Shown: one piece after another, positions 1,038 through 53,304 of the stretch
How positions within the stretch are numbered: the stretch's first letter is position 1
How the letters are laid out: each line of letters begins with the position of its first letter
Notes under the pieces: model-generated
Told to the model about the DNA's origin: nothing
Databases searched by the model: none
The model's input: only the letters and a program-made list of their open reading frames with translations
IMG/VR virus record: IMGVR_UViG_3300017971_000191
Length of the DNA stretch: 64,000 nt
Strand: one strand, 5' to 3'
DNA from: a virus
Lineage: Duplodnaviria; Heunggongvirae; Uroviricota; Caudoviricetes
Program-made: the position numbers and the translations under genes

Positions 1038-1400
1038 TCAGAGACTAGGCACTTGCCACTGCCGCAGCTCGTCAACGTCCTTGGTAAACCGCGGGGTTGC
1101 GATATGGCCGAAGCAGACCCGGTACTTGGGGCCACGGATGTACGTGTTCACGGGCAGGCACGCGAACGGAATCGTGTAGGCGGCATACCCCTCTTCGTCG
1201 ATGAAGTCGGGCTCCCGCACCTCGTCGGGTTTTAGCTGGTCCTTGATAGGATGGGCCGCCAGGATCTCGCGGATGTCCGGCAGCTCTTTCCAGGGCAATC
1301 CCTTCCGTTTAGGCGCGGGGCTCGGCGTGGCAGGCACCAGTGGTGCCATCACGGCCGCCGCCCCGGCAGCTAATGCTTTGAGGAAATCCCGCCGCCTCAT
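1038..1400 (-). CDS. exported (Tat signal RRRDFLKALAAGAAAVMA) protein whose C-terminal part is homologous to residues ~85-130 of the capsid-like protein 6070..7011
   Basis: ATG at 1398-1400 is preceded by AGGAGGAG and overlaps the upstream stop as ATGA. The motif TIPFACLPVNTYIRGPKYRVCFGHIATPRFTKDVDELR matches SIPFATLPVNLYIRGPRYRVMFDRIVTPRFTKDVDELR in 6070..7011. Confidence 0.55.
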   Translation of the reverse strand: MRRRDFLKALAAGAAAVMAPLVPATPSPAPKRKGLPWKELPDIREILAAHPIKDQLKPDEVREPDFIDEEGYAAYTIPFACLPVNTYIRGPKYRVCFGHIATPRFTKDVDELRQWQVPSL

Positions 1401-2050
1401 GTCTTCTCCTCCTGGACCTCGTCCACGGCAACTTCGGTGCATTTCATGCCGCGGAGCACGGAAACGTCGTCGTACGCCTGCCACTTCGGATCAATGTGGC
1501 GTCTGACGGGAAAGCCGGAGTTGGCGATTGGCGGATGATAACGAAGGAGGGCCGCCTGGATGCGCTCGTAGTCGTCCTTCTTGAGGGTCTTCCGCCGGGC
1601 ATCTCTGGTATAGGAACACGCCCGCCGAAGTTTCTGTCGGAACTCCTCGACGAGTTCCTCCTCGGTGCCCACCGAGACCTCAAACGCGATGGCCGCTTCC
1701 TTGGCACGCTGGAACTCACCGGTAGGCGGCTGGAGGCCGAAGTATTCGATCCAGTACCTCGGGTCCCGTGGCGCGGACGGCACAGTGGATTTGGGCCGGA
1801 TGAGATCCGGCCGAGGACAATCGAAGGCCAGCATGACGCCGCCCATCACGGCGACGAACAGCTCGTCGTCTTTCTTCGTCGCGGGGACCCGGTAGGTCGG
1901 AGTGCGGACGACGGCGTTTTCGGGGAGCAGGCTCTTGTGGAACTCCCCGAAGATCTCGGTCGTCTCCTCGGCAGTTGTCTGGCGCCGCGGGAAACCGCAC
2001 CAGGCCAGGACCGCACCGGCAGCGGCAGCAAAGAATCCACGCCTCTTCAT
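1397..2050 (-). CDS. secreted hypothetical protein (signal peptide MKRRGFFAAAAGAVLAWC)
   Basis: ATG at 2048-2050 with a GGAGA ribosome-binding site. The long N-terminal extension of ORF 1397..2524 in the track is rejected. Confidence 0.55.
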   Translation of the reverse strand: MKRRGFFAAAAGAVLAWCGFPRRQTTAEETTEIFGEFHKSLLPENAVVRTPTYRVPATKKDDELFVAVMGGVMLAFDCPRPDLIRPKSTVPSAPRDPRYWIEYFGLQPPTGEFQRAKEAAIAFEVSVGTEEELVEEFRQKLRRACSYTRDARRKTLKKDDYERIQAALLRYHPPIANSGFPVRRHIDPKWQAYDDVSVLRGMKCTEVAVDEVQEEKT

Positions 2051-2063
2051 CGTTCTCTCCTTC

Positions 2064-2978
2064 TCAGAAAAACACGCCTCCGTACGAGGAGCTGACGCTC
2101 CCGATACAGAGCTGCTGGTTGATCTCCAACTTCTTGTAGTCGACGAACTGCCTCCACTCATCCAGCAACATGGCGCCGACACGGAGGTACGGTTCCTCCT
2201 TCTTCTTGTCGTCGACGGCCACGCCGCCGGCGTTGTAGGGCAAGTGGTTCCGCCGGTAATTGGCGGCGGCGATCTCGTAGAGATGCCCGCAGATGGCCCG
2301 CAGCCAGTTCTCGCGGAAGGGGAAGTTCCGCGTGTCGATCTGCGGCCGGATCGGAGGCGGCCGACTGTTCCAGAACTGAAGAGGCCGGCCGATCGCCGTT
2401 GCGAGCACGTCGTCCCCGAACTCGATGTCGTCCAGCAGCAGGTTGTCGACGCCGCCCGTGTCGAGCACCGCCTGGCGAAGCTCCAGCACGGTCGGCGGGC
2501 CCAGGTTATGGGTCTCATCGTCACTGCCGAAGAGGCTCCGCTCGACCCAGAGCAGGCCCGCGTTGACGACCTTGATCTCGTTCTCTGCGTCGACCACGGC
2601 GAAGCTGAGCTGGTAGATCCCCGAGTTCCGCACCATCGTCGCCAGGGTGGGGAAGCGGGCGGTTCCTCCTGCGGCCGAGATTACCGTACCCTGCGTGCTG
2701 AGCAGGGGATTGGTGGAGCTGTTGACCGGGGCCACCAACTCCTTGGTTCGCAGCCAGACGGCCCCCTCGTCGGCCTGGGACTCCGAGACAGAATCGTTCC
2801 CACCAGCAGCGCCGGGGAACAACTCGCTGAGGTCGATAGGGTTGCCGGCGGCATCCCGGAAGGTATGCTCCAGGGTGGGTTTGATCCCAAGCTGGGTGAC
2901 GAAGATCTTCATCCGCGTCAACGCGGGGCAGTCCTCGACGTTAGGGATACTCGCCGTGATGGTCCCGAGTGTCGGCAT
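2064..2978 (-). CDS. hypothetical protein (possibly structural)
   Basis: ATG at 2976-2978 with an AGGAGA ribosome-binding site. Translation MPTLGTITASIPNVEDC... No family recognised. Confidence 0.45.
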   Translation of the reverse strand: MPTLGTITASIPNVEDCPALTRMKIFVTQLGIKPTLEHTFRDAAGNPIDLSELFPGAAGGNDSVSESQADEGAVWLRTKELVAPVNSSTNPLLSTQGTVISAAGGTARFPTLATMVRNSGIYQLSFAVVDAENEIKVVNAGLLWVERSLFGSDDETHNLGPPTVLELRQAVLDTGGVDNLLLDDIEFGDDVLATAIGRPLQFWNSRPPPIRPQIDTRNFPFRENWLRAICGHLYEIAAANYRRNHLPYNAGGVAVDDKKKEEPYLRVGAMLLDEWRQFVDYKKLEINQQLCIGSVSSSYGGVFF

Positions 2979-2988
2979 CGTGCCTCTC

Positions 2989-4496: not shown

Positions 4497-4620
4497 TGGG
4501 GCCTCCGGGTTGAGATGCAAGTAGTCTACCCGGAGATCCCGAGGCCGGTCGAGACAGTTTCCAGAAAGCCGTCAGTTTCCTGGGCGAGAAAACGAGCCCA
4601 AACAGGAATACGTCGGCGCG

Positions 4621-5943: not shown

Positions 5944-5959
5944 ATGGTACTCCTGGTTC

Positions 5960-5979
5960 TCAAAAGCGGTTTTGAGGAT
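5960..5979. repeat. palindromic motif CTCAAAAGCGGTTTTGAGGA, copy 1 (intergenic, 5' of gene 5610..5943)
   Basis: Exact 20-mer shared with copies at 17386 and 43047. Confidence 0.6.
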
Positions 5980-6069: not shown

Positions 6070-7011
6070 CTACTGGAAGTCGACGCGAGCCAGACCGCTG
6101 GTGTGACCGATGGTCCCACCCATAGTCTCGTACGCGAAGAACTCCAGCATGTAGGCCTCACGACGAATGTACATCGTCGTATCTTCCAAAACGAAACTTT
6201 TGCCGATGAACTTGGGATCGGCAAAGTGGTACATCGTGTTGGTCGGCACGAGGCCCTTTTTGATCGTGATGATCCACTTGTAGCCCATGAACTCCTGGAG
6301 GGTCCACCCGTTCCGCATGATGTCTGCGGAAATGTCCCCACCCATTTCGTTCCGGGTCTGCTTGCAGACCTCCTTGATCGTGATGTTGTTCAGGAGGATG
6401 CAGTGCACCTCCAGGTTGCTGGGCGTGTTGGGCATCACCTTCACCGAGTCCCAGAGGGTGTCTCGGGTGATCCCACCAGCGATGACCTCGTGCTGGACCA
6501 CGCCCGACGTGGGCACGGTCAGACCGGGGCCGACCAGCGCGGTGTTGACGGCACGGATGAACTTGCCGTCCTCTTCCGCCAACATGTCCTTGATGGCGTT
6601 GTCCGACAAAACCTGCCGGATGTCCATCACCCAGGTGCGCAGTTCGTCGACGTCCTTGGTGAACCGAGGAGTGACGATGCGGTCGAACATCACGCGGTAG
6701 CGAGGACCGCGGATGTACAGGTTGACGGGCAAGGTCGCGAAAGGAATCGAGATTGCCGCGGGGCTCTCCGGCTCCTTGTCGATGACCTTGACGGGCTTGT
6801 CCGTGTCCACCTGCCGGTCCAACTCATCGTTGCCGATGGGGATGGGCGGCATGATGCGACGGAAGAAGCCATCTTCCCTCATCTTGACCCGGGTGAAGTC
6901 GTTGACGGCATCCACCGCCTGCTTCTCCAGCACGGGGTCACGAGAGGACAGCTTCTCGAAGATCGCCTCGTTGAGGAGTTTGGACTCCTCCATCGTCATC
7001 TGGGCACTCAT
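6070..7011 (-). CDS. putative major capsid / structural protein, about 313 aa
   Basis: It sits downstream of scaffold-like acidic proteins and a putative portal. It has no signal peptide and no recognisable enzymatic motif. The capsid call is positional and low-confidence. Confidence 0.4.
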   Translation of the reverse strand: MSAQMTMEESKLLNEAIFEKLSSRDPVLEKQAVDAVNDFTRVKMREDGFFRRIMPPIPIGNDELDRQVDTDKPVKVIDKEPESPAAISIPFATLPVNLYIRGPRYRVMFDRIVTPRFTKDVDELRTWVMDIRQVLSDNAIKDMLAEEDGKFIRAVNTALVGPGLTVPTSGVVQHEVIAGGITRDTLWDSVKVMPNTPSNLEVHCILLNNITIKEVCKQTRNEMGGDISADIMRNGWTLQEFMGYKWIITIKKGLVPTNTMYHFADPKFIGKSFVLEDTTMYIRREAYMLEFFAYETMGGTIGHTSGLARVDFQ

Positions 7012-9581: not shown

Positions 9582-11081
9582 CTAAAGTGTAATGTGATTT
9601 TGCCGCGCACTCAACCGAGCTGTCAATGGGAAATCCGAATCGGAACACGCAATTCGCTGGAGTGCAGCCAGCTTGTAGATCGCATAGTCCCGAGCGAGTT
9701 CCTCGGCCTCGGGTTCGTCCGCAGCCGATTTCTCAAAACTACTCCGCACGTCCGGGGCCTTTTGGCCGCGGATTGACGCCAACATCGCCCGTTCCCGGAC
9801 GGCGTCCACGTCCAACGAATACTCCCTGGCCCCAAGGTTGGCCGCCGTACGAACCGCCGCAGAGGCCAGCTTCTCGGCCAGGGGGTACTTGTTTTGCTCG
9901 ATTCGACGCTCGATGGAGTCGTCGTCGATCATCCGCTGGTAGATCCCGGGCAGGTGCTCGGAGGCGGCCTTCACCAGGCCCTCTCCGTGCCCGAGCCAGC
10001 GGCCGAAGTCTCGAATGTGAAGGATGATCTTCCGGTCGGCCAAGGCCCCGAGATCCGCCGCACCCTTCTCCGAGCCGGGCTTTTCCAGCACGTCGACGTC
10101 GAAGGGGGACTGGGGCTCCAGGCCACAATAGGCCTCCGCCGAGCGCTGGGCCTCGATCGCCTCGCAGGAGGCCATTCCGTAGCCGAGCTTGATTTGGGCG
10201 GCGATCTTGGTGCTCCACTCCCCGGGCAGCCCGTCCTGGTACATGATGACCTGGATCGGAGCGGTATCCTGGGAGGCCAGCTCCGCAGCAGCCTTGAAGT
10301 CGAACACGCCGCCATCTGCCGCAGCCTTCTCGAAGTAGTTGGCCTTGGCCCCGGAGGCGATCCGGTCTGCCTGGCGGAAAACCCGGCTCATGTCGAACCA
10401 GGTGGGGAAGAGGTTCTTCACGCCCAGGTGGTGCATGTCTCCGGCGACCTTCACCACGCGGGTCAGATTGTCCTTGCAGCCGCCGGCCTTGCACATGCCG
10501 GGGGTGCAGTAGTCGTCGCGGCTCTTGGCCTGGTTGCCACAGAAGGTGCAGACATCGAAGGGGACACGGCAGGCCATCGACACCGGGAGATCGCCGTCGC
10601 GGGCGAGCTTCTCCAGCTCGATGTCGGCCACGAAGCCCCCGTTGCGATCGCAGGCGCTCTTCTCGGCGTTGAGCACGGCCAGCAGCTCCACCCGCTGCAT
10701 CTGCGGGTTCCAGGCCGAGGCCTTGATGATGCCGAAGTGGGGATGCCCCTTCTCGGGCTTGTTCTTGTGGTTGCGGAAGAACCGGGCGAACTTCACGAAG
10801 GTGGGATGGTACTTCTCGCAGGCACTCTTGGGGAAGCCGTCCCCGTTGCGGTTGATCCCGTACGCCTCCATGGCGCCCAGGGCGATGATGTGCAGGGGGA
10901 CCTCGTCCTTGGCGACCTTGATATTGTCCAGCACGTCAAGGAAGACGTGGGCGGCGCCGGCCGACTTGACGAAGTCAGCGCGGTCCGTCCCGATCAGCCC
11001 GCGGCTGGAACACTTCACGGGAACGACCACCGGTCGATCCCAGTCCCAACCTGCCGGTGAGACGTACTTGATCATGGACAT
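9582..11081 (-). CDS. hypothetical morphogenesis-module protein (499 aa) with a Cys cluster (CTFCGNQ...CTPGMCKAGGC); prohead protease candidate by position only
   Basis: It lies between the putative portal and the scaffold/capsid genes. No catalytic motif was assigned. Confidence 0.45.
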   Translation of the reverse strand: MSMIKYVSPAGWDWDRPVVVPVKCSSRGLIGTDRADFVKSAGAAHVFLDVLDNIKVAKDEVPLHIIALGAMEAYGINRNGDGFPKSACEKYHPTFVKFARFFRNHKNKPEKGHPHFGIIKASAWNPQMQRVELLAVLNAEKSACDRNGGFVADIELEKLARDGDLPVSMACRVPFDVCTFCGNQAKSRDDYCTPGMCKAGGCKDNLTRVVKVAGDMHHLGVKNLFPTWFDMSRVFRQADRIASGAKANYFEKAAADGGVFDFKAAAELASQDTAPIQVIMYQDGLPGEWSTKIAAQIKLGYGMASCEAIEAQRSAEAYCGLEPQSPFDVDVLEKPGSEKGAADLGALADRKIILHIRDFGRWLGHGEGLVKAASEHLPGIYQRMIDDDSIERRIEQNKYPLAEKLASAAVRTAANLGAREYSLDVDAVRERAMLASIRGQKAPDVRSSFEKSAADEPEAEELARDYAIYKLAALQRIACSDSDFPLTARLSARQNHITL

Positions 11082-19107: not shown

Positions 19108-22100
19108 CTAGGCCGATTCTAGCCCATTTTGCGCGGCCTCGCCAATAGCAAAAGGCTCCTCCTCGAAGAGGATGGGAAATCCGCCGACCAGCGGCGCCCC
19201 GCCCATCTCGTCGAGACCTCGCTTGAAGAAGGGGTTGAAGGAGACCTCACCACGCCAGATTTCCGCCGGCGTGGCAAAGCGTTTGAGGCCCCAGCCGGCT
19301 CCGGGGAGGTGGATCGGCTCCACACCTGGGACACCCGGACGCTTCAGGTGAACATCCTCCATAATCCGTTCACCAGCCCCCATACCCTCGTGGGACAGCT
19401 CGTAGCCGGACATCTCCTGTCGCTGGCGGAGCTTTTCCAAAGACTGCTTCTGCCCGGGCGTCAGACCGCCGGCAGCCTCGATCTTCTCCAACTCGCGGAT
19501 CTGCTCGGGGAGGGCTGCTTTCTGGCTCTGAGCGGTCTCGGCCCGCTCCTGCAAGATCGGCTGGGCCTTGCCCTTCAGCGAGCTATACTCCTGGAGGGCT
19601 TCCATTCCAGCCTCGGCCGGCTCCTTGATGACGTCCTGGATGTCCATCATGCCCTGGGCGATCCCGGCGTACGGAAGGACCATCCCTTTGGCCTTATCCC
19701 AGAGCGTGCCGTCTTTCCCGTAACCGTGGCGTTCCTTGACCCGGCTCCACACCCGCGACAGCGGATCGAGGATCGACTTGTCGTTGTGCAACTGGTAGTC
19801 CCGCTGGTTGATCGGGTTGCTGGGATCGAGGCCCTCGGCCGAGCGGCGCTGATAGAGTTCCTGTTGCTGCGAACCCAAACCGTAACTCCGGCCGGCTTCC
19901 TGGGCACCGCGGATCGTCGCCTCGGTGGTACCCGCGACAGTCTCTGCGCCCGCAGCCCCCGTACTGAAGGGGCTGAAAAACTCTCCAGCGAAACCCACAG
20001 CGTCCAGGGGATTCCCTGCGGCGGCTCCTTCGATCTGCGACTGCCGACGCTGGTTGACTTGCTCGCCAGCGCTACCGTGGCCGGTAAGACCATGCTGAAC
20101 AACATTCCTGCCGGTACCAATCGCGTCCAGGGCGATCGCCAGATGGCCCAGCGGCCCTACGCCCGGCTTGGCACCCTTGGCGGCGCCCCACAGCTTGCTG
20201 GCCCCGGGGATGCGATTCATCAGTCGGGTAAGCATCCCCGGTCCGCCCTTGGGAGACATGAACTTCATGTTCCGCAGCCACTCACCGGCCCGCGTGTTGC
20301 GGAGCCACGGCAAGTAGCCAGTCCCCTTCACTGGAGCCCGCCAGAGCGTGCTCAGTCCGCGACCGATCGGGGCCAGGCCCTGACGGATCATGGCCGCCTG
20401 GCCCAGCTCCCGCGACGGGTTGGCCGGGTTGGGCATGAAACGGAGGAACATGTCCTCGGCCCAGTCAGGCGTGTAGTTCCTCACACTCTCGGGCAAGGCA
20501 TCTCGCAGGTTCGTGGGGGCTTCGTCACTGAAGACACCCGTGCCGGGCTTGGTTCCAAGGATCGTATCGAAGGCGTTGTCAACGCCCTGCTCGATCCGCT
20601 GGTCCATGGCCGCCTGGGGGTCCGCGGCAGGAGCAGCCGGCTGCTGGACTTCAGGGGCAGCTTCGGGGGTCGGCTGTTGCTGGTCAATCTGGTAGCCGGC
20701 TGGCGGGATGCCGCTGCCGCCTGCTCCCTGCCAGCCGCCGGTACCGGAGAGTGGGGAGTATCGTTGGCCGCTGGTCAAGACCCGCATGGACTGCGGCGAC
20801 ATCAGCGTTCCCATGGTCATCACGCCACCCACGCCGGGAAGCATCTTGTTGACCTGTTGAATCAGCGGCACAGCCAGCGGGCTGCCCATCATCCCCGGGC
20901 TTGCGTAGGAACCCCACTGCGGCCGAGCCGCCGGCATGGAGCCGACTTGCTCAACACCGCCAGCACCTCCCGCAGCGGCTGCTCCTGCGGCATACGGATT
21001 TCCGCCTGTACCCGCCGAAGGTACAGTTGTACCCATCTGCGCAGAGGGACTCGGACCGACCCCCTGCGCAGAACGCTCGGCGGCTCCCTGGACTCCGCCC
21101 GAGGTGCCGGGGGGAGTCGAAGTCGGTTTCTTGTACGGAGCAGGAAGCGAGGCGATTTTCTCCAGCTCGGCGTCCGAGGAGAGTTTGAACCGGCCACCGA
21201 ACCAGCTCTTGCGTACCGGCTTCGGCTTACGCTGCTCGGTCTGCTCACTGGCCAGGCTCGGCCGGGGTGGCTCGAATCCGGGGCCAGGCTTGCGGACGAC
21301 GCTGTTCGGCGTGCGGCCGAAATTGGTCGAGCGGGCCAGGGCGGGGACAAAGGAGCTGCCCCGCTCCTCGCTGGTGCCGCCTCGCTGGGCCGCGCTGAGC
21401 AAGCTCTTCTTCAAGCCGGAGCCGTAATGCCGGACCAGCCAGTCGGGGTCGTGCTGCATGGAGTACATGCCACGAATCATCTCCGGCTCGAAAGGCGGCG
21501 GGTTCTTGTGTACACTGAGCGTGTTCACTCCGAATCGCTCGAACTCCCGGAGCATCGAGGGCCGGACCTTCGTGCCGATCGTATAATGGAGGACAGGGCG
21601 TTCAAGGTACTGGCCAACCGCCCTCCGAGGTTCGACATCCTCGTAGTCCTCACGAGGCGTGTACCGGTGTTCGAGCGTTGAATACGGAATGACGTCACCC
21701 GGAACTCCGTCTTCGTATTCCTCGGTGAGTCTGACATGGTTGATAAGCCCCCTACTGAGCAGCTCGGTGTTTCTCCGGTGAGCCTTGAGCCCTGCATCCT
21801 GCAAAGCCTGGCGGAAAGCCCACGTGAAGTAACGACGTCCCTCGCCAACGCCTTTATGTCGAACGATCTGACCCGGATTCGGGAGACCCTCCGAAAGCAC
21901 GTCCCCGGCTTCGACCGTATCACCCTTCTTGACTTTCAAGTCGAAGCCCTGGCCCACATAGTGCTGCTCGCCGTCGATGGTGACGTAGTTACCACCCGCG
22001 GGAGCTTTCTCGATGCGACCCACGGTCCCATCGACCTGGGCATGTGCCGCGCCGCCTTTCATTACCCGTGGCGTCTGGACTAGCTGGTTGATCCGCTCGA

Positions 22101-32430: not shown

Positions 32431-32817
32431 CTACAACTGGTATTGGGAGCCGGAGCCGGGCATGACCACCGTCTTCTTACGCCGGCGGAGCCTGTCCTTG
32501 ACGGCATCCTTGTCGGTGGGCATCCCCTGTTCCCGTGCCTTCTGGGCCAGGGCGACTCCCTCCTCGATAAACTTCTGCTGCCGATCGACGTCGATGCCGA
32601 TCTGCTTGCCGACCTGACGATCGCCCCTGATCATCTGGTTGATGGCGTTGAGCCGCTCCAGAAACTCGCGGACCGACAGCGACTCGTACTCTCCAGTGTC
32701 CCGGTCTTCGTGGTGGACCAGGCCGTTCTCGGCCCAGTACCGGTCGCGTTTCTGATTGTCGCGGGGCCCAAAGTAGATGACCTTGTGCTGGCCGCCGAGC
32801 AAGGGGACCTTCGCCAT
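32431..32817 (-). CDS. hypothetical protein
   Basis: 128-aa ORF. Confidence 0.45.
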   Translation of the reverse strand: MAKVPLLGGQHKVIYFGPRDNQKRDRYWAENGLVHHEDRDTGEYESLSVREFLERLNAINQMIRGDRQVGKQIGIDVDRQQKFIEEGVALAQKAREQGMPTDKDAVKDRLRRRKKTVVMPGSGSQYQL

Positions 32818-32835
32818 CCCTGGCTCCTTCCATGG

Positions 32836-33300
32836 TTAGAACTGGTAGATGAAGAAATTCCCTTTCTTCGCTTGGTGGGGAATCGGAAGCCGGTGCATAT
32901 AGCTGATGACCTTCACCCCGCGACATCGTTGGAGTTTTGGGGTGAGTTCACGCACCAGCGGCATCGGCAGGTACATATAGTAGACCGTGGCCGGCAGCTT
33001 CTCGAAGTCCACCTCGCGGAGATCCTTGCGATAGACCGCGACGAGGCTACCCAGTTTGTTGAACCTGACGTTCTCCTGAGCGTGCCGGACCTTATCGACG
33101 TCGTAGTCGATTCCGACTGCCTTGCACCCGTACCGCTTGGCTGCAAACACGCACAGCCGGCCGTCCCCGCAACCCAGGTCGTAGAAGACGTCCTTCTCGT
33201 CCAGGTCCGCCAGGGCGAGCGCCGTGTAGCACTCATTCACCGGCGTCGGGGCATCGGGTTGTGCGCCGAGTACGGCACAGAGGACAAGGGCCAGGTACAT
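32836..33300 (-). CDS. secreted class I SAM-dependent methyltransferase (signal peptide MYLALVLCAVLGAQP)
   Basis: LGCGDGRL is a glycine-rich AdoMet motif I. The start overlaps the upstream stop as ATGA. Confidence 0.5.
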   Translation of the reverse strand: MYLALVLCAVLGAQPDAPTPVNECYTALALADLDEKDVFYDLGCGDGRLCVFAAKRYGCKAVGIDYDVDKVRHAQENVRFNKLGSLVAVYRKDLREVDFEKLPATVYYMYLPMPLVRELTPKLQRCRGVKVISYMHRLPIPHQAKKGNFFIYQF

Positions 33301-34157
33301 CAGTAGCAACCTCCTCCGTAACACATGGCGCAGGCCGCGTTGCCGCAACCGCCGCCGGACATCATCATCCCGCCGCCGTAGTAGCCGCCGTAGGATTGAG
33401 ACGGCATCGCGTAGCTCTGACTCGGATACGACGACTGCAACGGCATCCCGCCATAGTAGGTGCCGCCGGATGCGACGGCACTGGATTGCGGGCACATCCC
33501 CGTGCCCTGATACGGGCAGGAGGCACAGTTGCCGTCGCACTGGATGCCGGAGCCGTTGCCCAAGCGGTAGGACCCGTCCGCCGTCACGTACATCGGCGTA
33601 GTCGAGTAGGCCAGGCCGCTTGCCTTCAGCGCAGTCTGCTTTACCCCGAGTTTCACGGCGATCCACCTGAACTGGGACTGCTCCATATTACCGCAGCCCG
33701 TCCAGCGACAGATCTCGTTCCCCTCGGAGTGCAAGATGAGGGTGGGGACCAATTCGATCTTCCAGTCCCTGGCCAGCTCGGCATGCGCGGGGTTAGCCGT
33801 GTTGCCGAACTGGACATCGTAGCCTTCGGCCGCAAGCCGTTTCAGCATGGGCTTGACTTTTTCGCAAGGCGGGCAACCCTCACCGCACCACAGCAACATC
33901 GTAGGCGGCGAATCTGCGGCCTCGATCTTGGCGAAAATCGTGTCCCAGCTTGTTTTGGCACGCTGCTCGGTAGTCCTGGTCTGTTCCTGGACGATTTGAG
34001 CGCTCCTCTGCGGCGAGAAGAGGCCCCAGTTGTCGCTGGCCATCGCCAGCATGGAGGGGACCTCAGCTCGGCTTGCCGGACTGATGAGGAACCCCAAGAG
34101 CAGAATCGTAGAAACTACCGTAGCGATACATAGACCGACATTCTTTGGAGAGGACAT
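33300..34157 (-). CDS. secreted thioredoxin-like protein (WCGEGCPPC) with a C-terminal Gly/Tyr/Cys/Met-rich tail
   Basis: N-terminal signal/transmembrane segment, CxxC active-site motif, and a tail ending GGGCGNAACAMCYGGGCY. Confidence 0.5.
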   Translation of the reverse strand: MSSPKNVGLCIATVVSTILLLGFLISPASRAEVPSMLAMASDNWGLFSPQRSAQIVQEQTRTTEQRAKTSWDTIFAKIEAADSPPTMLLWCGEGCPPCEKVKPMLKRLAAEGYDVQFGNTANPAHAELARDWKIELVPTLILHSEGNEICRWTGCGNMEQSQFRWIAVKLGVKQTALKASGLAYSTTPMYVTADGSYRLGNGSGIQCDGNCASCPYQGTGMCPQSSAVASGGTYYGGMPLQSSYPSQSYAMPSQSYGGYYGGGMMMSGGGCGNAACAMCYGGGCY

Positions 34158-34755
34158 GGCGAACCTCCTTTTCCGTGATCAGCACATCCTGCGCATACCA
34201 GCGCCGATGAGCCTCGTGGGCGTCCCAGGTACTACATGCTGGGATCTTTCGGTGCCACTCAATATACAGCGCATCACGGGCCTGGAGGAAGTCCGAAACG
34301 TCCGGTGGGCCGAGGAGCCCCGGGGCCCCACGACGGAGGGCCGCTTCCCTGTCGGCTAAAAGAAAGAACTCATAATCCTCGTCGGCCAGCCGCTGACGAA
34401 GATCCCGGTTGATCCGGACCCTCTGGAGGATCAGACTCGGCGTGATCGCCATGACGGCTCGGAGGTAGCGGAGACAGTCGTGGATCTCCTTCCGCATGGC
34501 GGGCTCGTAGAGCCAGATTTTCTCGCCCTGCTTGACCGGAGGGAGAAGGAGGATCTCGAAGGCAATCCCACAGGCCTCCCGGGCCATCAGCTCCTCCTCG
34601 GTCGGGGCCAGCACGTCCGCCAGGGAGATGCGCTCAAACGACCGGGGCGGCGCGGCGACGGAGCTTTCCGATTTTTCGGTTGCGGCTCGCAAGGCTGTTG
34701 CAGGCCATGCTAACAGGGAGAGAATCCCTGCCTTCAAGCAGTCTCGTCGCTTCAT
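34063..34755 (-). CDS. Tat-signal (MKRRDCLKAGILSLLAWPATALRA) exported hypothetical protein
   Basis: Twin-arginine motif followed by a hydrophobic segment and an AxA cleavage-like site. Confidence 0.45.
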   Translation of the reverse strand: MKRRDCLKAGILSLLAWPATALRAATEKSESSVAAPPRSFERISLADVLAPTEEELMAREACGIAFEILLLPPVKQGEKIWLYEPAMRKEIHDCLRYLRAVMAITPSLILQRVRINRDLRQRLADEDYEFFLLADREAALRRGAPGLLGPPDVSDFLQARDALYIEWHRKIPACSTWDAHEAHRRWYAQDVLITEKEVRHVLSKECRSMYRYGSFYDSALGVPHQSGKPS

Positions 34756-35335
34756 TCTTCTGCTCCTCGTCGACAATGAACTCGATACGGTTGCCATCCA
34801 CAGCGGTCACGACGGCGGAAAAGTCCCCGACCGACGCGCCGAAGTCGATACCGGCGCTGAAATTGATCTTGTCGCCCGGTTTCACGCCGCCCGCCAGCAA
34901 GGGCTCCGACGTGATGATCGGCGGCAGGATGGTCGACTTGCTCACGTAGACCTTGTTCGGGTGGGCCACCTGGTCCAGCTCGTCGTTGGAGATGGGAACT
35001 GGCGGGAGAATCCGGCGGAAGAAACCATCTTCTCGCATTTTTACCCTCGTGAAGTCGTTGACGGCATCCATGGCCTCCTTTTCCATCACAGGATCGCGAG
35101 AGCAGAGCTTCTCGAAGATCGCCTCGTTGAGGAGCTGCGTGTCGCTCGGCGACATCGTCACCGGTTTCTTCTCGGGCAACCACAGCGCAGGAGGTACCGC
35201 CACGGAGACGCCGATCGCTCCGATGGCCTTGAGGAAGCCCCGCCGCTGCATCAGGAACAGCTCCTGCTCGCTGTCGGAGAGCTTCTCGCGGCCGAAGCCG
35301 AAGAACTGCTTGATAAGACCCCAGTTGACGTTCAT
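34634..35335 (-). CDS. Tat-signal exported chimeric protein whose N-terminal region duplicates residues ~11-66 of the capsid-like protein 6070..7011
   Basis: The signal RRGFLKAIGAIGVSVA is followed by LLNEAIFEKLCSRDPVMEKEAMDAVNDFTRVKMREDGFFRRILPP, about 87% identical to the 6070..7011 region. Shared 20-27-nt DNA identities show a recent duplication. Confidence 0.55.
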   Translation of the reverse strand: MNVNWGLIKQFFGFGREKLSDSEQELFLMQRRGFLKAIGAIGVSVAVPPALWLPEKKPVTMSPSDTQLLNEAIFEKLCSRDPVMEKEAMDAVNDFTRVKMREDGFFRRILPPVPISNDELDQVAHPNKVYVSKSTILPPIITSEPLLAGGVKPGDKINFSAGIDFGASVGDFSAVVTAVDGNRIEFIVDEEQKNEATRLLEGRDSLPVSMACNSLASRNRKIGKLRRRAAPVV

Positions 35336-35417
35336 TGATCCTGCCTCTGCGCCCGGGGGGCGCCGGGTTGCTGCTGGACCCGACGCCCCCTTCCGAGAAC
35401 CGCCGCCGCAAATGTCG

Positions 35418-35858
35418 CTAGTCGTCCTCAGGCATCTTGCAGAGCATCAGGATCTGCCCGTCGTCGATGTTCGGCTGGGGAACAGGCACCGGCAGCGGAC
35501 CGAACTCTCCCAGCTTGTCGAGGATGTCCACCAGGGCGTCGACGGCACCGCGGGCGATCTCCATGATGACCGTCTTGAGGCCGCGATCGACGACCGGCTC
35601 CAGCCAGTTGGGCACCGGCTTGAGGTCGATCGGCGTGATCACGTCGTCGATGAGGGTCTCCACGGCGGCGAGGATCGCTTCCTTCCGCTCGGCGGCCGAG
35701 TAGCCGCTGATCTGGGCCACCAGGTCGATGCACTTCTTGACGAACAGCATCACCAGGGCCACGACCTCGCTGAACGTCAGCTTCTGATCGGCGTAGGCCT
35801 CTTTGTAGGCCGCCACCATCGCCGCAACCGCCTCGTTGATCCGGTCGTACAGACTCAT
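35418..35858 (-). CDS. hypothetical protein
   Basis: ATG (MSLYDRINEA). Confidence 0.45.
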   Translation of the reverse strand: MSLYDRINEAVAAMVAAYKEAYADQKLTFSEVVALVMLFVKKCIDLVAQISGYSAAERKEAILAAVETLIDDVITPIDLKPVPNWLEPVVDRGLKTVIMEIARGAVDALVDILDKLGEFGPLPVPVPQPNIDDGQILMLCKMPEDD

Positions 35859-41487: not shown

Positions 41488-42119
41488 TCGTCGGTCTTTC
41501 CTGCCGTCGCACTGGCTTGAATCGAGAGCCCTACGTGGTGCATCGCCGTTGTGGGACAGACGCTCACCAACACTTCTTCCACGTAGAAGCCGTACTTCTG
41601 CATACGATCTCGTACACCGTTGGTCACGTCTTCGTCAACAGTAGCTTCGACAAGATAGTCTCCCAGCTCCGCCAGCGTGTTCTGATTGACCATGTAGCGC
41701 AGCTCGGGGATGGCCTGCGTCTGGACCATCTCGTCCAGGTCGTGGCACTTCAACGAGGCCCGCAACGGAGCCCGGACGTAGCCTACCACGGTGGCGTCGA
41801 CGGTGACGGCCTGGCCGTCCTTGGTCATGGCCGGCTTCTCGACGATGTCCAGCGGGTAGGGCACGACCATCCAGGAGTGAATGTCCGTGAGCTGCGGGAC
41901 GTACCAGTAGAAACCCGCCTTGAACGCCTGCGGTTTGGGGACGGGACCCCGCAGCCAGTAGAACCGACTCCACCACTCTTTCCGCCAGAACATGAAGAAC
42001 GACGTCGTCCTCAGCTTCACGACGCGCTCGATAGGGGTGACCTTGATCGGATGAGGAAACCACTTGGCCAGGTAACGAAGCAGCTCCGACAGCCAACTGA
42101 ACGCGCCTTCAATGGTCAT
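41484..42119 (-). CDS. hypothetical protein
   Basis: 211-aa ORF whose start overlaps the upstream stop. Confidence 0.45.
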   Translation of the reverse strand: MTIEGAFSWLSELLRYLAKWFPHPIKVTPIERVVKLRTTSFFMFWRKEWWSRFYWLRGPVPKPQAFKAGFYWYVPQLTDIHSWMVVPYPLDIVEKPAMTKDGQAVTVDATVVGYVRAPLRASLKCHDLDEMVQTQAIPELRYMVNQNTLAELGDYLVEATVDEDVTNGVRDRMQKYGFYVEEVLVSVCPTTAMHHVGLSIQASATAGKTDE

Positions 42120-42652
42120 CGCTGCGGCCTCCTTTTGTTGAATCTACGCTGCACGCTCTGGATCAACATCTCCCCCGCCTTCGTCAGGCCCTTGCACCTC
42201 TTCCGCTCGTTGCCAAACAACCTTAGGGCATGATACTCACAATGCCACTCACCTTCCGGACGCTTGATCCACACCACGTCACCGTCTTCGTAGATGATTT
42301 CGTCGTCGTCGGGCAGAACGCGATCCGGATCGTAGTAATCCTCGACCGGGTAGGAGTTCATGAACTTGCCGACGCGGACCGTACCGATCATCTGAAAACC
42401 AGGTCCCGTGCGACGATAGACGACATACCACTGGTAGTCGCACAGGGGCTCGATCCTTCCGCCCTCGATCTCCCTGACGAAGTCCCCCTCGGTCCAGGCC
42501 ATGTCGTACTCGAACTCAATCTGGACCATGGGCCGCGCTGCCGGCCGCGGCGGTGCCAGGTGGGGCGTGGGCGCCGGCTTCGGTGCCTTATGCAAAGGCA
42601 TCGGAACGACAGACAACAACATCGCGGCAATCCAGGTGACGTCCATGTTCAC
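42116..42652 (-). CDS. secreted hypothetical protein (signal peptide)
   Basis: MNMDVTWIAAMLLSVVPMPLHKA, followed by a Pro-rich region. Confidence 0.45.
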   Translation of the reverse strand: MNMDVTWIAAMLLSVVPMPLHKAPKPAPTPHLAPPRPAARPMVQIEFEYDMAWTEGDFVREIEGGRIEPLCDYQWYVVYRRTGPGFQMIGTVRVGKFMNSYPVEDYYDPDRVLPDDDEIIYEDGDVVWIKRPEGEWHCEYHALRLFGNERKRCKGLTKAGEMLIQSVQRRFNKRRPQR

Positions 42653-44138: not shown

Positions 44139-44228
44139 TTTCCACCCTTGACGATGTCCCCCATGAGGGATATACTTCTTAGATCGGATGCGGTCGTGAC
44201 CGGAGGCTACTGTAGGAAGGAGTCCATG

Positions 44229-48934: not shown

Positions 48935-48941
48935 TCCGTCC

Positions 48942-49904: not shown

Positions 49905-49916
49905 TCTGCCTCCTGT

Positions 49917-50561
49917 CTAGGAGCCGAAGGCCGCCAGGGTGAAAGCCATTTCCCACCCGCGAGCGTCTCGCAAGTTGATAGCCTCCAACTGATTGATGCT
50001 AACCAGGCCAACCGTATGACCCAAACGAAGATCTTTACCGTCCGCCAGCCCCCCAGCCTGCGACTCCCATAAACCGTGCGTCACAGCCAGGCAGGCATCG
50101 TAGACCGAGCAGCCGCGGATGAGACGGGCACCGTCCGCCTGGGCCTGGACGATGTACTTGCCGCTCACGGTGACTGCGGCCGGGTGACCCTCCGGATGGA
50201 CAGCGTACAGCACCTTGGCGATCGTGTCACGATCAAGGAACGGGAAAGCGGGATTCACGAGCAAATAGTGGCTCGCGTGGCCGTCGTCGCTGGCCCGCAA
50301 GTAGGCCGCGATCTCGTCGGCCAGCGGGGCGTGCTCATCGCGAGCGATAGGAAAGTAGACACGCACCCGGTCGTCCACGGCGACGGCGTCTCGGAGAGCC
50401 GGGGTCTCGTCGGGATGGCTGACTTCCTTGTCCACCAGCACGGCAATTCGGTCGATCTCGCGGAAGTCTTCGAGCTTCCGCACGGCCAGCTCCAAGGAGG
50501 AGCTGTCACCCAGCCAATCAAGGATCGGCGGGTCTGCTGGGACAATAGCCACTATATCCAT
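49917..50561 (-). CDS. nucleotidyltransferase, cytidylyltransferase-like (CMP-sugar synthetase / IspD-like)
   Basis: N-terminal MDIVAIVPA...LVNPAFPFLD pattern; weak. Confidence 0.35.
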   Translation of the reverse strand: MDIVAIVPADPPILDWLGDSSSLELAVRKLEDFREIDRIAVLVDKEVSHPDETPALRDAVAVDDRVRVYFPIARDEHAPLADEIAAYLRASDDGHASHYLLVNPAFPFLDRDTIAKVLYAVHPEGHPAAVTVSGKYIVQAQADGARLIRGCSVYDACLAVTHGLWESQAGGLADGKDLRLGHTVGLVSINQLEAINLRDARGWEMAFTLAAFGS

Positions 50562-50562
50562 T

Positions 50563-51350
50563 TCAGAACAAATCCTCCGCGTCAAGGTACACTCGGACGT
50601 CGTCCGGCAACTCAAGCCGAACAGTGTGGAAGTTGGCGATTCGTTGCCGCATGCTCCGGTTCTTCAACCGCCGGCAGCTCGGCGTCACAGCGGCATAGGG
50701 AGGCAGTTCGAGATACTCGAACACCTGACCCATGACCTCGTGATAGTTGAGGAACAACTCGCGGTAGTGAATCTCCAGCCGATCATCACAATACTGCCGA
50801 ACCCGCTCCTCGAAGGCCACGTGCCAACGCACGAACGGCACGAGCTTGGAGGGTTCGAGATCGACCGGCAGCGGAGAGTTCAATGGTTGCCGGTCGTCGA
50901 TGTCCTGCTGGAAGACCCCGGTCTGGAGTGCTTGCTTCCAAGAGACGTAGCAAGCCACGGGGTTGCGCAGGACCAAGATGGTACAGAAGTCCCCCTCCAG
51001 GCTACGCTCATGCAGGAACTCCCACAGATCGTTGGCCTTCAGGTGGGGGAACAGAACTTTGACGCCGATTGCCTCCTCGCCGTTCAGCGGGCTGTCGAAG
51101 ACTCGGGCGCTTAGGTATTGCTCGGGGTTGACCTCGCCGGGGATGCAGTGCTCCGGCATGGCCGCCTTAAAAGGCGCCCCGAAATACTCCTCATGGGTCT
51201 CGCGGCGGACATCCTCCTCGTGATGTAGCAAGTCTCCATGGCATGTCGCCTTAGGGTGAGATCGTACGGACGTCTGGATGACGCTCGCTCCGCATCGTAC
51301 TTGACCTGTTACCACGAAGTTGAGGATGTCCTTGCTTCTCTGGGAAGACA
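50563..51350 (-). CDS. sulfotransferase-family protein
   Basis: NFVVTGQVRCGASVIQ is a PAPS 5'-phosphate-binding-like loop. ILVLRNPVACYVS is an RNP 3'-PB-like motif. Confidence 0.45.
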
Positions 51351-51386
51351 TGGACAGTTCCTCGTCACACACGTCTTTTGTCGAGT

Positions 51387-52250
51387 TCAACGTAGGGTCA
51401 CAGACCCTACCACATCCTCTTCCGGAGGACGTTCCAGCGTGCGGACGTTGAAGTGCCCGACCGCCACCTTCACGTACTCCAGCACGTCGTCCGTAACATT
51501 CGGGCAACGCGCCCCGTGAAACACGGGGCCAGCATACTCGCCCAGGAACTCCTCTCGACTCTTGACGTTGAGGCCGTGGTAAATGGCCACATGGAGACAG
51601 GGCCCGGGAAACCAGTCCGGGCCGTTATCAAGGATGACGCGCCGCTCGCCGAACTGCTCGACGAACTGCTTGTCTTCGCCAGGCGCTCCGTTCTCCGGAA
51701 AGAACGGAGAGTCCGCGGCGGACCACAACACCGTACTGGCGTGGCCCAGGCTTTCCACCGGAACGCAGATCACCGTGTTCCGGATGTCGACACGAACCTG
51801 GTGGGAGAGCAACACACAGCAACCCTCGACACGGTGGGCCATCTGGAAGGCCACGCGATGAGGATGGCTATGATCATCGTCGTCGATCGACAGCAGCCAA
51901 TCGCCCTTCGCCTCCCGGATAGCACGATTCCGTAGACCACCGATGGTCGGGTAGTCGTCCCGGGGGACGAGGAACTCGCGTACCAGAGGATGATCGTGGG
52001 TCGTCACACGACGGCCCGACGAGTTGACGATGACGATTTCTTTGCGGCTGTAGGTCTGGCGAACAAACTGGTTCACCGTGGTTCGTGCAATCACGAGCCT
52101 TCGCGGATCGGCTAGTACCAAAAGACCGGTGACCAAAGGACAAGGCTGCCCGCGGTGGGTAGTCGCCTCGGCGTTGGTCTCCTGGTTCTCATCCGACTGA
52201 CCGGGCTTGTCCCCAACATCGTCTAAGGTCGGAGGGACCAGGGTAGGCAT
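51387..52250 (-). CDS. family-2 glycosyltransferase
   Basis: LLVLADPRRLVIARTTVNQFVRQTY...IVIVNSSG...LLSIDDDD. Confidence 0.5.
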   Translation of the reverse strand: MPTLVPPTLDDVGDKPGQSDENQETNAEATTHRGQPCPLVTGLLVLADPRRLVIARTTVNQFVRQTYSRKEIVIVNSSGRRVTTHDHPLVREFLVPRDDYPTIGGLRNRAIREAKGDWLLSIDDDDHSHPHRVAFQMAHRVEGCCVLLSHQVRVDIRNTVICVPVESLGHASTVLWSAADSPFFPENGAPGEDKQFVEQFGERRVILDNGPDWFPGPCLHVAIYHGLNVKSREEFLGEYAGPVFHGARCPNVTDDVLEYVKVAVGHFNVRTLERPPEEDVVGSVTLR

Positions 52251-52302
52251 CAGACAGTTTACTCCTGGGGTCGTTGTTCGAGTTTAGTCGACTGACCGGC
52301 CT

Positions 52303-53304
52303 TTACAGGCTGGACAGCAGCGAGGCAAAGGAAACGCTGAAGGCCTCCGCGAAGGGAGACGGCTTCGGCTCCACCTGTGCCACCGGTCGCTTGCCTACCT
52401 CCATGCCCAGCCATTGCGGCCGGTTGCTGACGTCGAGATCACCCGGGCCCAACGGCCACGGAGGCGCCGCATGCGCAGCACGAGACGGCTTCCAGTGCGG
52501 ATCAGGCTCACTGAAGACCAGATGGCTGCTAGTGGGCGTCATGTAGAGCTTCTCGATGTCGAGGACATCCTTGTACTCAATACGCTCTCGCTCCCTGTGG
52601 CGACACCGCGGACAGACGTCCGTCGAAGTGTCGACCTTCTCGTGCAGCACCCAGTTTCTGGTGAAACCCATCGGCTCGCCCGCCTCGTGGGTCAGGCAGC
52701 GATGGTAGAAGCCGCACTTCTTGCAACGCATGAAGGCGATCTTCAATTCCTCCAGCGACCGGGTGAACTTCACGGGCAAGAGCCCTCCCATGAAGATGCG
52801 GTCGACCTGGAGCCGGCGGTCGCGCTGGCAAGCCATCAACTGGAGCGGGAACCGCCTTCCCTGGGCGTCGAACAACGCGGGAAAGGCATCGCAGTTGCGA
52901 TTCTCCTCGTAGCGCAGCTCGGGGAGAAAACCCTTTGGGGAGCACACGCACACTGACTGGGCGAACGCCTGGCGATCGTGAGGGATAAGGAACTGCGCAC
53001 CGACCCACGGCTGCGACCGCAAGGGCCGGTAGACGAGCAGCTCATCAACCAGGGACACCTGCCCGTCGTCCTGGTGAAGGACCGAGGTGCCCGGGGGAGT
53101 AAAGTCGGTCTCGACAGTGAGTCGAGATGTACCCTTGCCAAAGCTCTTCTCCGTATCGGGGGACGGAGAAAACGGCAAGGCCTTCTTCTCTGTTGCAGCG
53201 GCGTCGACTGCCACCGCAGAAGCACCCAGGCCCAGCGGGATCGCCAGGCCGCCAAGGCACTTCGTAAGGAAACCACGTCGGGAGTCTCCCATCAGTACCT
53301 CCAT
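52303..53304 (-). CDS. Tat-signal exported Cys-rich protein (CKKCGFYHRC...CPRCRHRE)
   Basis: SRRGFLTKCLGGLAIPLGLGASAVA twin-arginine signal. Confidence 0.5.
   Translation of the reverse strand: MEVLMGDSRRGFLTKCLGGLAIPLGLGASAVAVDAAATEKKALPFSPSPDTEKSFGKGTSRLTVETDFTPPGTSVLHQDDGQVSLVDELLVYRPLRSQPWVGAQFLIPHDRQAFAQSVCVCSPKGFLPELRYEENRNCDAFPALFDAQGRRFPLQLMACQRDRRLQVDRIFMGGLLPVKFTRSLEELKIAFMRCKKCGFYHRCLTHEAGEPMGFTRNWVLHEKVDTSTDVCPRCRHRERERIEYKDVLDIEKLYMTPTSSHLVFSEPDPHWKPSRAAHAAPPWPLGPGDLDVSNRPQWLGMEVGKRPVAQVEPKPSPFAEAFSVSFASLLSSL

Follow-up and report, generated by a model that had tools for sequence, protein, structure and literature searches.

The window analysed here (the whole 64,000-nucleotide stretch, from the Caudoviricetes record IMGVR_UViG_3300017971_000191, with 63% GC and nearly all its genes on the minus strand) holds five minus-strand open reading frames (ORFs) with N-termini of the type used by the twin-arginine translocation (Tat) pathway: 1038..1400, 1397..2050, 34063..34755, 34634..35335 and 52303..53304. 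Behind two of these leaders lie fragments copied from the phage's own major capsid protein (MCP), an HK97-fold protein of 313 amino acids (aa) encoded on the minus strand at 6070..7011. It is well supported that the window contains genes of an undescribed type, in which a Tat-type leader is fused to a patchwork of the MCP of the same phage. The certain members are 34634..35335 and 1038..1400 (two of the five ORFs), and the other three share the leader type, with a cargo that is either unrecognisable or weakly similar to other phage genes. Our literature search found no report of a virus in which signal peptides are joined to rearranged parts of the virus's own capsid protein and, to our knowledge, Tat-exported phage proteins in general are barely documented.

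A preliminary description of this DNA had counted at least eight exported proteins, by Tat or Sec signals, and had read them as a sign of periplasm or envelope remodelling, or of a host in which Tat is dominant. Five Tat-type leaders and one plausible Sec signal (or signal anchor) remain from that count, and two candidates, a methyltransferase and 42116..42646, are unconvincing.

Tat-type leaders in the window

The five leaders follow a single plan, Z-RR-x-F/C-L/F, with a moderately hydrophobic h-region and a basic c-region. The twin arginines occupy residues 3-4 in three ORFs, 5-6 or 9-10 in 52303..53304 and 31-32 in 34634..35335, and in four of the five an ATG lies one to four codons ahead of them. 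The h-regions are uncharged runs of 13-18 residues, followed by KRK, RR, R, KK or KK, and their best 10- to 19-residue windows have Kyte-Doolittle (KD) values of about 1.6-2.2, against about 2.6 for the Sec-like thioredoxin protein described below.

Individually, 1038..1400 (120 aa) has a leader spanning approximately aa 1-27 (1320..1400), of sequence MRRRDFLKALAAGAAAVMAPLVP..KRK and with the N-terminal consensus MRRRDFLKALAAGAAAV. The adjacent ORFan 1397..2050 (217 aa; leader MKRRGFFAAAAGAVLAWCGFPRR, consensus MKRRGFFAAAAGAVLAW) has a Shine-Dalgarno (SD) sequence and an ATG two codons ahead of the RR. In 34634..35335 (233 aa) the leader is long and conserved (aa 1-58, 35162..35335), with a 29-residue n-region followed by MQRRGFLKAIGAIGVSVAVPPALWLPEKK (consensus LFLMQRRGFLKAIGAIGVSVAVPPALWLPEKK), and the protein ends in a basic tail. 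The ORFan 34063..34755 (230 aa if it starts at 34755, the least certain of the five starts) has the leader MKRRDCLKAGILSLLAWPATALRAATEK, with the consensus stretch MKRRDCLKAGILSLLAW. Lastly, the ORFan 52303..53304 (329-333 aa), which also contains a Cys-rich, zinc-ribbon-like region, begins M(EVLM)GDSRRGFLTKCLGGLAIPLGLGASAVAVDAAATEKK (consensus MGDSRRGFLTKCLGGLAIPLGLGASAVAV). It is the only one with clear AxA-type signal-peptidase motifs (AVA|VD, AAA|TE); such a site is possible in 34063..34755 (LRA|A), and there is none in 34634..35335, whose leader ends VAVPP..LWLP.

Curated models recognise part of this set. TIGR01409 (cut-off 16.7) is exceeded by 1038..1400 (22.8 bits) and 34634..35335 (17.6 bits), the Pfam TAT_signal model PF10518 by 1038..1400 (23.5 against a cut-off of 22.7 bits), and the Pfam Rieske Tat-signal model matches the long leader weakly (E 0.008). 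A strict six-frame scan for Tat leaders gave five matches in the window and ten in 1.87 Mb of related phages, the latter all in spurious frames, which corresponds to about 0.34 per 64 kb. Tat-type leaders are enriched in the window beyond chance (five observed against about 0.34 expected), and in this in silico sense the region is as unusually rich in Tat-type export signals as had been proposed. As an indirect control, the leader-core DNA pattern G[VIM]SRRxFL[KR]AxG[VI]T was searched in metagenomes, where it recovers bacterial Tat substrates (solute-binding proteins, molybdopterin and FAD oxidoreductases, Gfo/Idh/MocA enzymes) and, beside them, phage MCP mosaics. In IMG/VR, the pattern SRRDFLKAxG[VI]T gave one unrelated match, the matches of other leader patterns were not confirmed with a 58-aa query, and patterns taken from single proteins missed. 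Profile searches detected no phage tatA or tatC among the window proteins.

One hazard foreseen for these leaders was a wrong choice of start codon, and here the outcome is divided. Public gene calls concur for 1038..1400 (120 aa), 1397..2050 (217 aa), 34634..35335 (233 aa, called identically on six contigs) and 52303..53304 (329 aa, start 53292). The start of 34634..35335 at 35335 is also backed by coding potential, which places its RR at residues 31-32. The public call for 34063..34755 begins at 34587 and yields a leaderless protein of 174 aa; the longer form is supported by coding potential, in frame by about 34700, and by a GAGGAG upstream of the ATG at 34755. The twin-arginine signals proposed for 1038..1400, 34063..34755, 34634..35335 and 52303..53304 are borne out, with 34063..34755 having the weakest start, and 1397..2050, left earlier as Sec-type or Tat-like, has a Tat-type N-terminus.

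Two further proteins were seen outside the window. One, in the same phage about 5 kb past window position 64000 (L141:3211-3840), has 209 aa and a Tat-like N-terminus (..NRRQLLGNTIMAGLGYLAGVF..), so the genome may hold more than five Tat-leader genes. The other, a 149-aa viral-contig protein (L105:2325-2359, IMGVR_UViG_3300033074_002209), is unrelated, lacks MCP-like segments and has a textbook Tat signal (MNLSRRDFLKALGVTVAASTVGLPATAASA); phage accessory genes with a Tat leader may be commoner than assumed.

Capsid protein fragments behind two leaders

The resident MCP shares 30% identity with the protein annotated as MCP in Salmonella phage Arash. Its AlphaFold2 model (pLDDT 74.5, pTM 0.71), for which the alignment was built from database proteins, matches HK97 capsids and encapsulins in Foldseek with E ~1e-9, and consists of a helical N-arm (aa 7-53, with helices at 7-22 and 26-47), a beta region (74-120) and a long helix (131-159). 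The complete HK97 fold was found in this protein and in none of the Tat-leader proteins.

In an all-against-all comparison of the window proteins, aa 61-128 of 34634..35335 (34952..35155) are 72% identical to MCP aa 5-72 (blastp E 5e-30), and aa 68-115 of 1038..1400 are 71% identical to MCP aa 80-127 (blastp E 2e-19), this second fragment being mapped to aa 70-117 (1050..1193) of the 120-aa protein. An MCP profile derived from 81 relatives recovers both, with E 3.8e-26 for 34634..35335 and, for 1038..1400, a domain E of 6.6e-20 (hmm 75-122) and an E of 5e-19 in the six-frame search of the window; in that translation the two fragments are the only significant extra MCP-like stretches. The likeness is also visible at the DNA level, as repeats of 183 nt at 80% (D2, between 34634..35335 and the MCP gene) and 112 nt at 75% (D6, between 1038..1400 and the MCP gene). 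In structural terms, the copied piece in 34634..35335 is the helical N-arm, and that in 1038..1400 is the beta-hairpin (E-loop) region that precedes the long helix. Additionally, aa 42-58 of 1038..1400 (1227..1277) match weakly the start of this long (spine) helix (DIREILAAHPIKDQL against DIRQVLSDNAIKDML) and, since this bit lies upstream of the hairpin piece, the order of the segments is permuted. With only MCP aa 5-72 in one case, and only aa 80-127 plus a displaced helix bit in the other, neither protein is a capsid protein, and the copied segments (N-arm, E-loop hairpin and long-helix start) are incapable of rebuilding the capsid fold.

Both MCP copies are under purifying selection and are not recent. 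Their identities to the MCP gene at codon positions 1/2/3 are 0.74/0.90/0.66 and 0.77/0.77/0.50, the third position being the most diverged, and dN/dS against the resident MCP is 0.12 for 34634..35335 and 0.19 for 1038..1400 (pS 0.58), where a neutral fragment branch would give about 0.5. Synonymous sites are near saturation, yet nearly all the MCP residues that are invariant in the clade are kept in the fragments. Among the clade MCPs compared, the fragments score best against the resident one, by a small margin, and of the residues peculiar to its lineage they carry 11 out of 20 and 3 out of 5 at the informative sites, which indicates that they arose within this lineage.

The same lineage-specific states, together with the dispersal of the partial copies (D2, D6 and D14, at 75-80% nucleotide identity and including a 27-nt stretch at 96%), would be compatible with silent donor cassettes, where the capsid gene is diversified by segmental gene conversion from the partial MCP copies. 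We regard this as very improbable indeed, given that each copy lies in a translated ORF that has an SD and a leader of its own, that selection acts on the copies at the amino-acid level, and that they hold the invariant rather than the variable parts of the MCP. A diversity-generating retroelement was also considered and rejected, as the mismatches (37 and 28 sites) are spread over all four bases with no adenine bias, and the window has no reverse transcriptase domain. The same applies to a general sharing of peptides within the genome: once the MCP pairs are set aside, 6- and 7-mers are shared about as often as chance predicts. One such peptide, LPVSMAC, is common to the tail of 34634..35335 and to 9582..11081, being short and without support at the DNA level, and the C-terminal part of 34634..35335 weakly resembles a 945-aa structural protein encoded just beyond the window (tblastn E 0.006).

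Cargoes without significant capsid similarity and Sec-type candidates

For the cargoes of the Tat ORFs, Pfam, NCBIfam, PHROG and PADLOC give no family, and no homology among the mature parts of the five proteins is significant. A few weak resemblances can be listed for 1397..2050: Smith-Waterman z is 2.6 against MCP 93-129, which is not significant (a degenerate E-loop bit, LPENAVVRTPTYRV..TKKDDEL, is possible), and 4.8 against the C-terminus of the methyltransferase 32836..33300, which is suggestive and likewise not significant. Between 52303..53304 and 9582..11081, the motifs NRNxDxF and DVCxxC..R.R.EY recur at a spacing of 96 versus 99 residues, with a non-significant hidden Markov model (HMM) E of 0.3. 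Finally, 57438..58367 (minus strand) may be a leaderless mosaic with bits like the MCP C-terminus (LVEFYAYE; CIGHTAALARCDF). Its HMM E against the MCP is 0.024 (among 74 proteins) and its Smith-Waterman z of 5.2 is the best of the 74; this suggestive likeness is not significant in the six-frame window search. A capsid or protease origin of 1397..2050, 52303..53304 and 57438..58367 was consequently not accepted, all these matches being weak and below significance.

Three further minus-strand genes had been put forward with Sec-type or Tat-like signals. In the thioredoxin-fold protein 33300..34157 (CPPC motif, PF00085 E 8e-7), a Sec signal or anchor is plausible: the N-terminus has a lysine at position 5, a 19-20 residue h-region (KD 2.59 for the N-terminal 19-mer) and the site ASRA|E. 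A strong SD (AAGGAGG) precedes the gene, and close to 34160 coding potential passes to its frame, although public annotation shortens the protein to 250 aa. The part that encodes the signal has 95 nt in common with the 3' end of the upstream gene and, after the CPPC domain, the protein has a tail of about 90 residues that is rich in Cys, Gly, Tyr and Met (..GGGCGNAACAMCYGGGCY). Export is unconvincing for the other two. The S-adenosylmethionine (SAM)-dependent methyltransferase 32836..33300, which resembles protein-lysine methyltransferases (Methyltransf_25/31 and NF041081, E 7e-18) and had been described as secreted, offers no more than 12 hydrophobic residues at its N-terminus and lacks a basic n-region when read from its SD-supported ATG (33300), and an exported SAM-dependent methyltransferase would be unlikely in any case. 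The small lineage-specific gene 42116..42646 (MDVTWIAAMLLSVVPMPLHK), which is missing between the homologues of 42657 and 41484 in the related contig L102, has a hydrophobic N-terminus with an acidic n-region and no AxA cleavage motif.

These results bear directly on the proposal that the leaders export enzymes that remodel the envelope or periplasm, or that they reflect a compartmentalised or Tat-dominant host. A Sec-type thioredoxin-fold oxidoreductase does lie in the same gene island as two of the Tat genes (island 2, below), and it is the only exported candidate that fits periplasm remodelling. One of the samples in which this phage occurs (JGI 3300017963) may come from hypersaline sediment, which would speak for the Tat-dominant host. 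No envelope-remodelling enzyme can be recognised among the five Tat cargoes, and none of them has an enzyme domain (two are MCP patchworks and three are ORFans), no tatA or tatC was detected in the window, as stated, and close relatives do not have the Tat ORFs at the same positions, which indicates accessory genes rather than a clade-wide adaptation to the cell plan of the host. Nor does the host evidence point to a particular cell plan. Nine relatives found in GTDB metagenome-assembled genomes (MAGs) scatter over six phylum- or class-level groups (Actinomycetota, Myxococcota, Planctomycetota (two of the nine), Gamma-, Beta- and Alphaproteobacteria); the binning is uninformative on the host because the GC of the relatives spans 44-71%, the contig binned as 'Gemmataceae' having only 44%. 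Host prediction from tRNA gave no answer, as the sole tRNA-like element has no assignable anticodon. Taken together, we consider the export of remodelling enzymes, or adaptation to a Tat-dominant host, highly unlikely as an account of the Tat genes.

Insertion islands and their distribution

Four of the Tat ORFs lie in two insertion islands. Island 1 (1023..2063) places 1038..1400 and 1397..2050 between the conserved genes 2064..2978 and 165..1022, whose homologues are adjacent in three relatives (L003, L093 and L096), with gaps of about 40-80 nt. Island 2 (32818..35417, 2.6 kb) lies between the conserved genes 35418..35858 and 32431..32817 and contains four genes, namely the leader-mosaic gene, the leader ORFan, the thioredoxin gene and the methyltransferase gene, with serial overlaps of 95-122 nt. 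The slot of island 2 is empty (about 110 nt) in L088-L091, and in L102 (protein P0014), L109, L114 and L134 (P0013) it is filled by a leader-plus-MCP-mosaic gene. No Tat-like ORFs were seen within 10 kb of the MCP gene in relatives. The Tat-leader mosaic genes are accessory, lineage-specific and sporadic, and they occupy hot-spots in which a slot is re-used.

A wider family in uncultured phages

An exhaustive HMMER search of 1.84 billion cluster representatives with 34634..35335 as the query gave 233 representatives at E<=1e-3, and the true 313-aa MCPs (E ~1e-8) score below many non-MCP proteins. Among the best 150 of these 233, there are 11 full-length MCPs, 31 proteins with a Tat-like leader ahead of the first MCP segment, 23 with at least two MCP segments and 15 in which the segments are non-collinear. 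Examples of the latter are P0029 (MCP 278-303, 3-77, 76-104), P0031 (102-144, 23-53, 254-279) and P0150 (279-305, 81-114, 257-289, 18-65). Such permuted orders would arise if MCP copies were fused head to tail and then lost internal stretches by in-frame deletion and, in the multi-segment proteins, all segments are in the original frame within long ORFs. Pfam, PHROG and PADLOC give no match for the Tat ORFs or for P0013, P0014, P0029 and P0093.

Two features recur in the family. The first is the leader, which exists in a short type (RR at residues 3-9) and in a conserved form of about 55 residues, with an amphipathic n-region, SRRxFLK, a G/V/T-rich h-region and LWLP; this long module, M..L..I.KL...GVDP..I.RP.GVSRRDFLKAxGVTxVSVAV....LWLP, is common to many members, and a comparison of the leader of 34634..35335 with that of its closest homologue (P0004) gives a dN/dS of 0.28. 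The second is the N-arm core, A-x-D-A-v-N-d-F-T-R-x-x-m-R-E-d-G-F-x-R-r-I-x-P-P, which is 80-98% conserved in 97 N-arm segments, all of them from proteins other than full-length MCPs.

Some additional observations concern the composition of the mosaics. A basic motif (RRRRRAISRR, RRIRSIDV or RIRGLRxxxVIIDDE, the longer form resembling a Walker-B region) occurs inside, or at the end of, many of them (P0013, P0014, P0005, P0057, P0073, P0076, P0053, P0108 and P0129, and 34637-34680 in the window). Long leaderless mosaics contain bits of the GVPNRNGD type that resemble 9582..11081, and one leaderless mosaic of 915 aa (P0093) lies among early-type genes on a 159-kb phage contig. Segments from other head-morphogenesis genes may be included, with an ascertainment bias being likely, as conserved genes are those most readily recognised.

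The segment orders are also what would be expected if these genes were evolutionary debris, or an incipient stage of gene birth, in which the hot-spots collect partial copies of conserved genes and the leader gene is a mere recipient, the products having little or no function. Tandem duplication followed by deletion would explain the orders, three of the Tat ORFs are ORFans, the long gene overlaps of island 2 look like the outcome of recent insertions, and the occurrence of the genes is sporadic. Neutral decay is difficult to reconcile with the near-saturated synonymous sites combined with retention of the invariant MCP residues (dN/dS of 0.12-0.28, against about 0.5 if neutral), with the preservation of the original frame in every segment of the multi-segment proteins, or with a leader conserved across distant members and a slot that is re-used. 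For these reasons, we judge debris to be an unlikely explanation.

Genome context and neighbouring genes

That the virus-like region belongs to a phage is confirmed by the HK97-fold MCP, a fused multisubunit RNA polymerase (RNAP), a ribonucleotide reductase and a circular genome of about 236 kb. The circularity follows from window coordinates that wrap round the ends of a 236,137-bp ENA contig carrying window-identical proteins. Between them, JGI, ENA and Logan provide 5-6 independent contigs with identical products and this, together with public calls that match four of the five Tat ORFs, rules out an assembly or gene-call artefact. The MCP is found at 65-88% identity on more than 100 IMG/VR contigs of 150-235 kb, so that the phage belongs to a large uncultured clade, whose nearest cultured relatives are Salmonella phage Arash and three Vibrio phages (D69/D148/D181).

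In the RNAP, according to profile matches, beta and the N-terminal half of beta' are fused (26322..30764, 1480 aa), and the C-terminal half of beta' is a separate gene (19108..23148, 1346 aa) with a long low-complexity tail. Both sit among structural genes, and the RNAP gene is broken up in some relatives (by a homing endonuclease in the Vibrio phages, and with gaps in L087). The window also encodes a class II ribonucleotide reductase, CsrA, a pair formed by an inorganic pyrophosphatase (InPase) and a 2H phosphoesterase, and a sugar-modification cluster. The CsrA homologue (44226-44408, plus strand; PF02599, E 1e-24) is the only confident plus-strand gene of the window and is kept in relatives L086-L090. 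The InPase-like domain (PF18823, E 3e-49) is part of a 493-aa protein (42657-44138), fused to a C-terminal region and adjoining the 2H phosphoesterase at 44405-44971; a 7-residue match of this protein to an MCP helix (IRQVLSD), with no support at the DNA level, is probably due to chance.

The Tat ORF 52303..53304 is enclosed in the sugar-biosynthesis and transfer cluster (48942-64000), which extends about 10 kb past the window (L141:1-10000). This cluster comprises GT2 glycosyltransferases, a 4,6-dehydratase, a GT-D-like protein, a PglD-like acetyltransferase, a MaoC hydratase, an HpcH/citrate-lyase-like aldolase, methyltransferases, a DegT aminotransferase, a sugar isomerase and a sulfotransferase-like protein. 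The tRNA-like element mentioned above (ARAGORN, 53548-53624, minus strand, anticodon undeterminable) is directly upstream, in the sense of transcription, of the same Tat ORF. An 18-nt palindromic hairpin motif, CTCAAAAGCGGTTTTGAG, occurs at 5959-5976, 17386-17403, 43047-43064 and 54958-54975, with a weaker copy at 26985-27006 (4-5 copies observed against 0 expected). Two copies are directly upstream of gene starts (5942 and 54933) and two are within ORFs; the RNAP of the phage may use the motif as a promoter or terminator.

Interpretation

The explanation that we favour, while giving it somewhat less than an even chance, is that the leader-mosaic proteins are capsid mimics that are exported or tethered to the membrane by way of the Tat leader, with a role in exclusion or sensing, or as decoys. 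According to this proposal, the leader would bring the protein to the Tat translocase of the host. The protein would then probably stay anchored in the cytoplasmic membrane by its leader, with the capsid-like peptides in the periplasm, a topology suggested by the fact that most long leaders have no AxA site and finish with LWLP, behind which basic residues come; 52303..53304, which has AxA motifs, could instead be released. At that location, the conserved peptides would mimic the corresponding parts of the capsid at the molecular level and bind their usual partners. By analogy with signal-bearing phage accessory genes, the role that we favour would be superinfection exclusion, or sensing, against incoming related phages, and a close alternative would be that of a decoy for host factors that recognise the capsid protein. 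A stronger version of the proposal, in which these genes form a dedicated class of 'self-mimics' (tandem MCP copies that were trimmed, fused to a Tat leader and exported or tethered, in order to exclude related phages or to disarm capsid-sensing immunity), is conceivable and rather doubtful.

Several observations weigh against this explanation. Three of the Tat ORFs (1397..2050, 34063..34755 and 52303..53304) are ORFans with no significant capsid similarity, for which a search of 5.8 billion proteins returned self-matches only, and for the same three TIGR01409 and PF10518, both very short HMMs, report no match. The leader of 34063..34755 requires a 122-nt overlap with the upstream gene 34634..35335. 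Tat prefers folded cargo and the patchworks are probably unstructured; several members end in very basic tails (RRRRRAISRR; KLRRRAAPVV), which would be more natural in the cytoplasm; and the capsid shell is not ejected into the periplasm, so that a periplasmic partner of the capsid peptides is hypothetical. Furthermore, a second exact copy of the N-arm is absent in about 74 IMG/VR genomes of the clade (the lone double match being terminal redundancy), and Arash and the Vibrio phages D69/D148/D181 each have a single MCP place. Many of the short 'non-MCP' matches of the wider family may be MCP genes cut at contig ends; such truncation cannot account for the leader-bearing and multi-segment proteins.

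The basic tails are more easily accommodated by a decoy on the cytoplasmic face, where the leader would take the protein only as far as the membrane or TatBC, and the capsid-like peptides would absorb or misdirect a capsid-sensing defence of the host (Tat 'hitch-hiking' of the decoy might even expel a bound sensor). Capsid sensing has several parallels, namely the Lit protease with the Gol peptide of T4 gp23, CapRel with the MCP, and the membrane-associated PifA with the T7 capsid protein. What the mosaics have kept of the MCP are its best-conserved linear stretches, which purifying selection maintains away from the capsid fold, and the genes are accessory, sporadic and located in hot-spots, as is typical for counter-defence genes. 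On the other hand, no match to a known defence or anti-defence family was obtained, isolated capsid peptides are known to trigger, and not to inhibit, such sensors, and the presence of a full Tat consensus, instead of a plain membrane anchor, would be left unexplained. A decoy on the cytoplasmic face appears improbable to us.

If the proteins are indeed exported mimics, they would represent a new device in the conflict between phages, or between phage and host, with the export of capsid mimics through Tat as a new principle; they would also be a natural case of functional peptides that outlive their parent fold, and would show genes being born in a new way, through duplication, permutation and deletion. 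The conserved N-arm module may indicate a binding partner that is central to head assembly in this clade. Even as debris, these genes would be a striking signature of recombination hot-spots in 200-kb phages, and they call for caution when 'capsid-like' ORFs are annotated.

Comparison with known systems

The leaders resemble bacterial Tat signals (TIGR01409/PF10518, including uncleaved anchors such as that of Rieske proteins) in their Z-RR-x-F-L-K motif, in the moderate, G/A/V/T-rich h-region and in the basic residues that follow; two of the phage ORFs exceed the curated thresholds, and the leader-core pattern is common to genuine bacterial substrates. The phage genes differ in carrying capsid-protein fragments instead of cofactor enzymes, in the conserved n-region of 25-30 residues and the LWLP of the long form, and in the lack of an AxA site in most members, their use of Tat being predicted.

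With the superinfection-exclusion and envelope 'moron' proteins (T4 Imm and Sp, T5 Llp, TP-J34 Ltp, HK97 gp15), the leader-mosaic genes share, by analogy only, a small size, an accessory nature, variable positions, an N-terminal signal or anchor and a presumed action at the envelope on related phages. There is no sequence relationship between the two groups; morons use Sec, lipoprotein or transmembrane targeting, and none is built from capsid-gene fragments. The exclusion activity proposed for the mosaics is pure inference.

Capsid-derived immune ligands (the Gol peptide of T4 gp23 with Lit, and the MCP with CapRelSJ46) provide a precedent for short linear parts of HK97-fold MCPs that are bioactive outside the assembled shell. 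Those ligands are part of the normal MCP and are cytoplasmic, whereas the mosaics are separate genes with export leaders. The duplication of a structural gene and the dispersal of partial copies are, in turn, known from MCP paralogues (the T4 vertex protein gp24) and from silent cassettes (pilS, vls). Unlike paralogues of the gp24 type, the mosaics have lost the fold and have permuted segments and, unlike the pilS and vls cassettes, they are translated, bear a leader and are under selection at the protein level.

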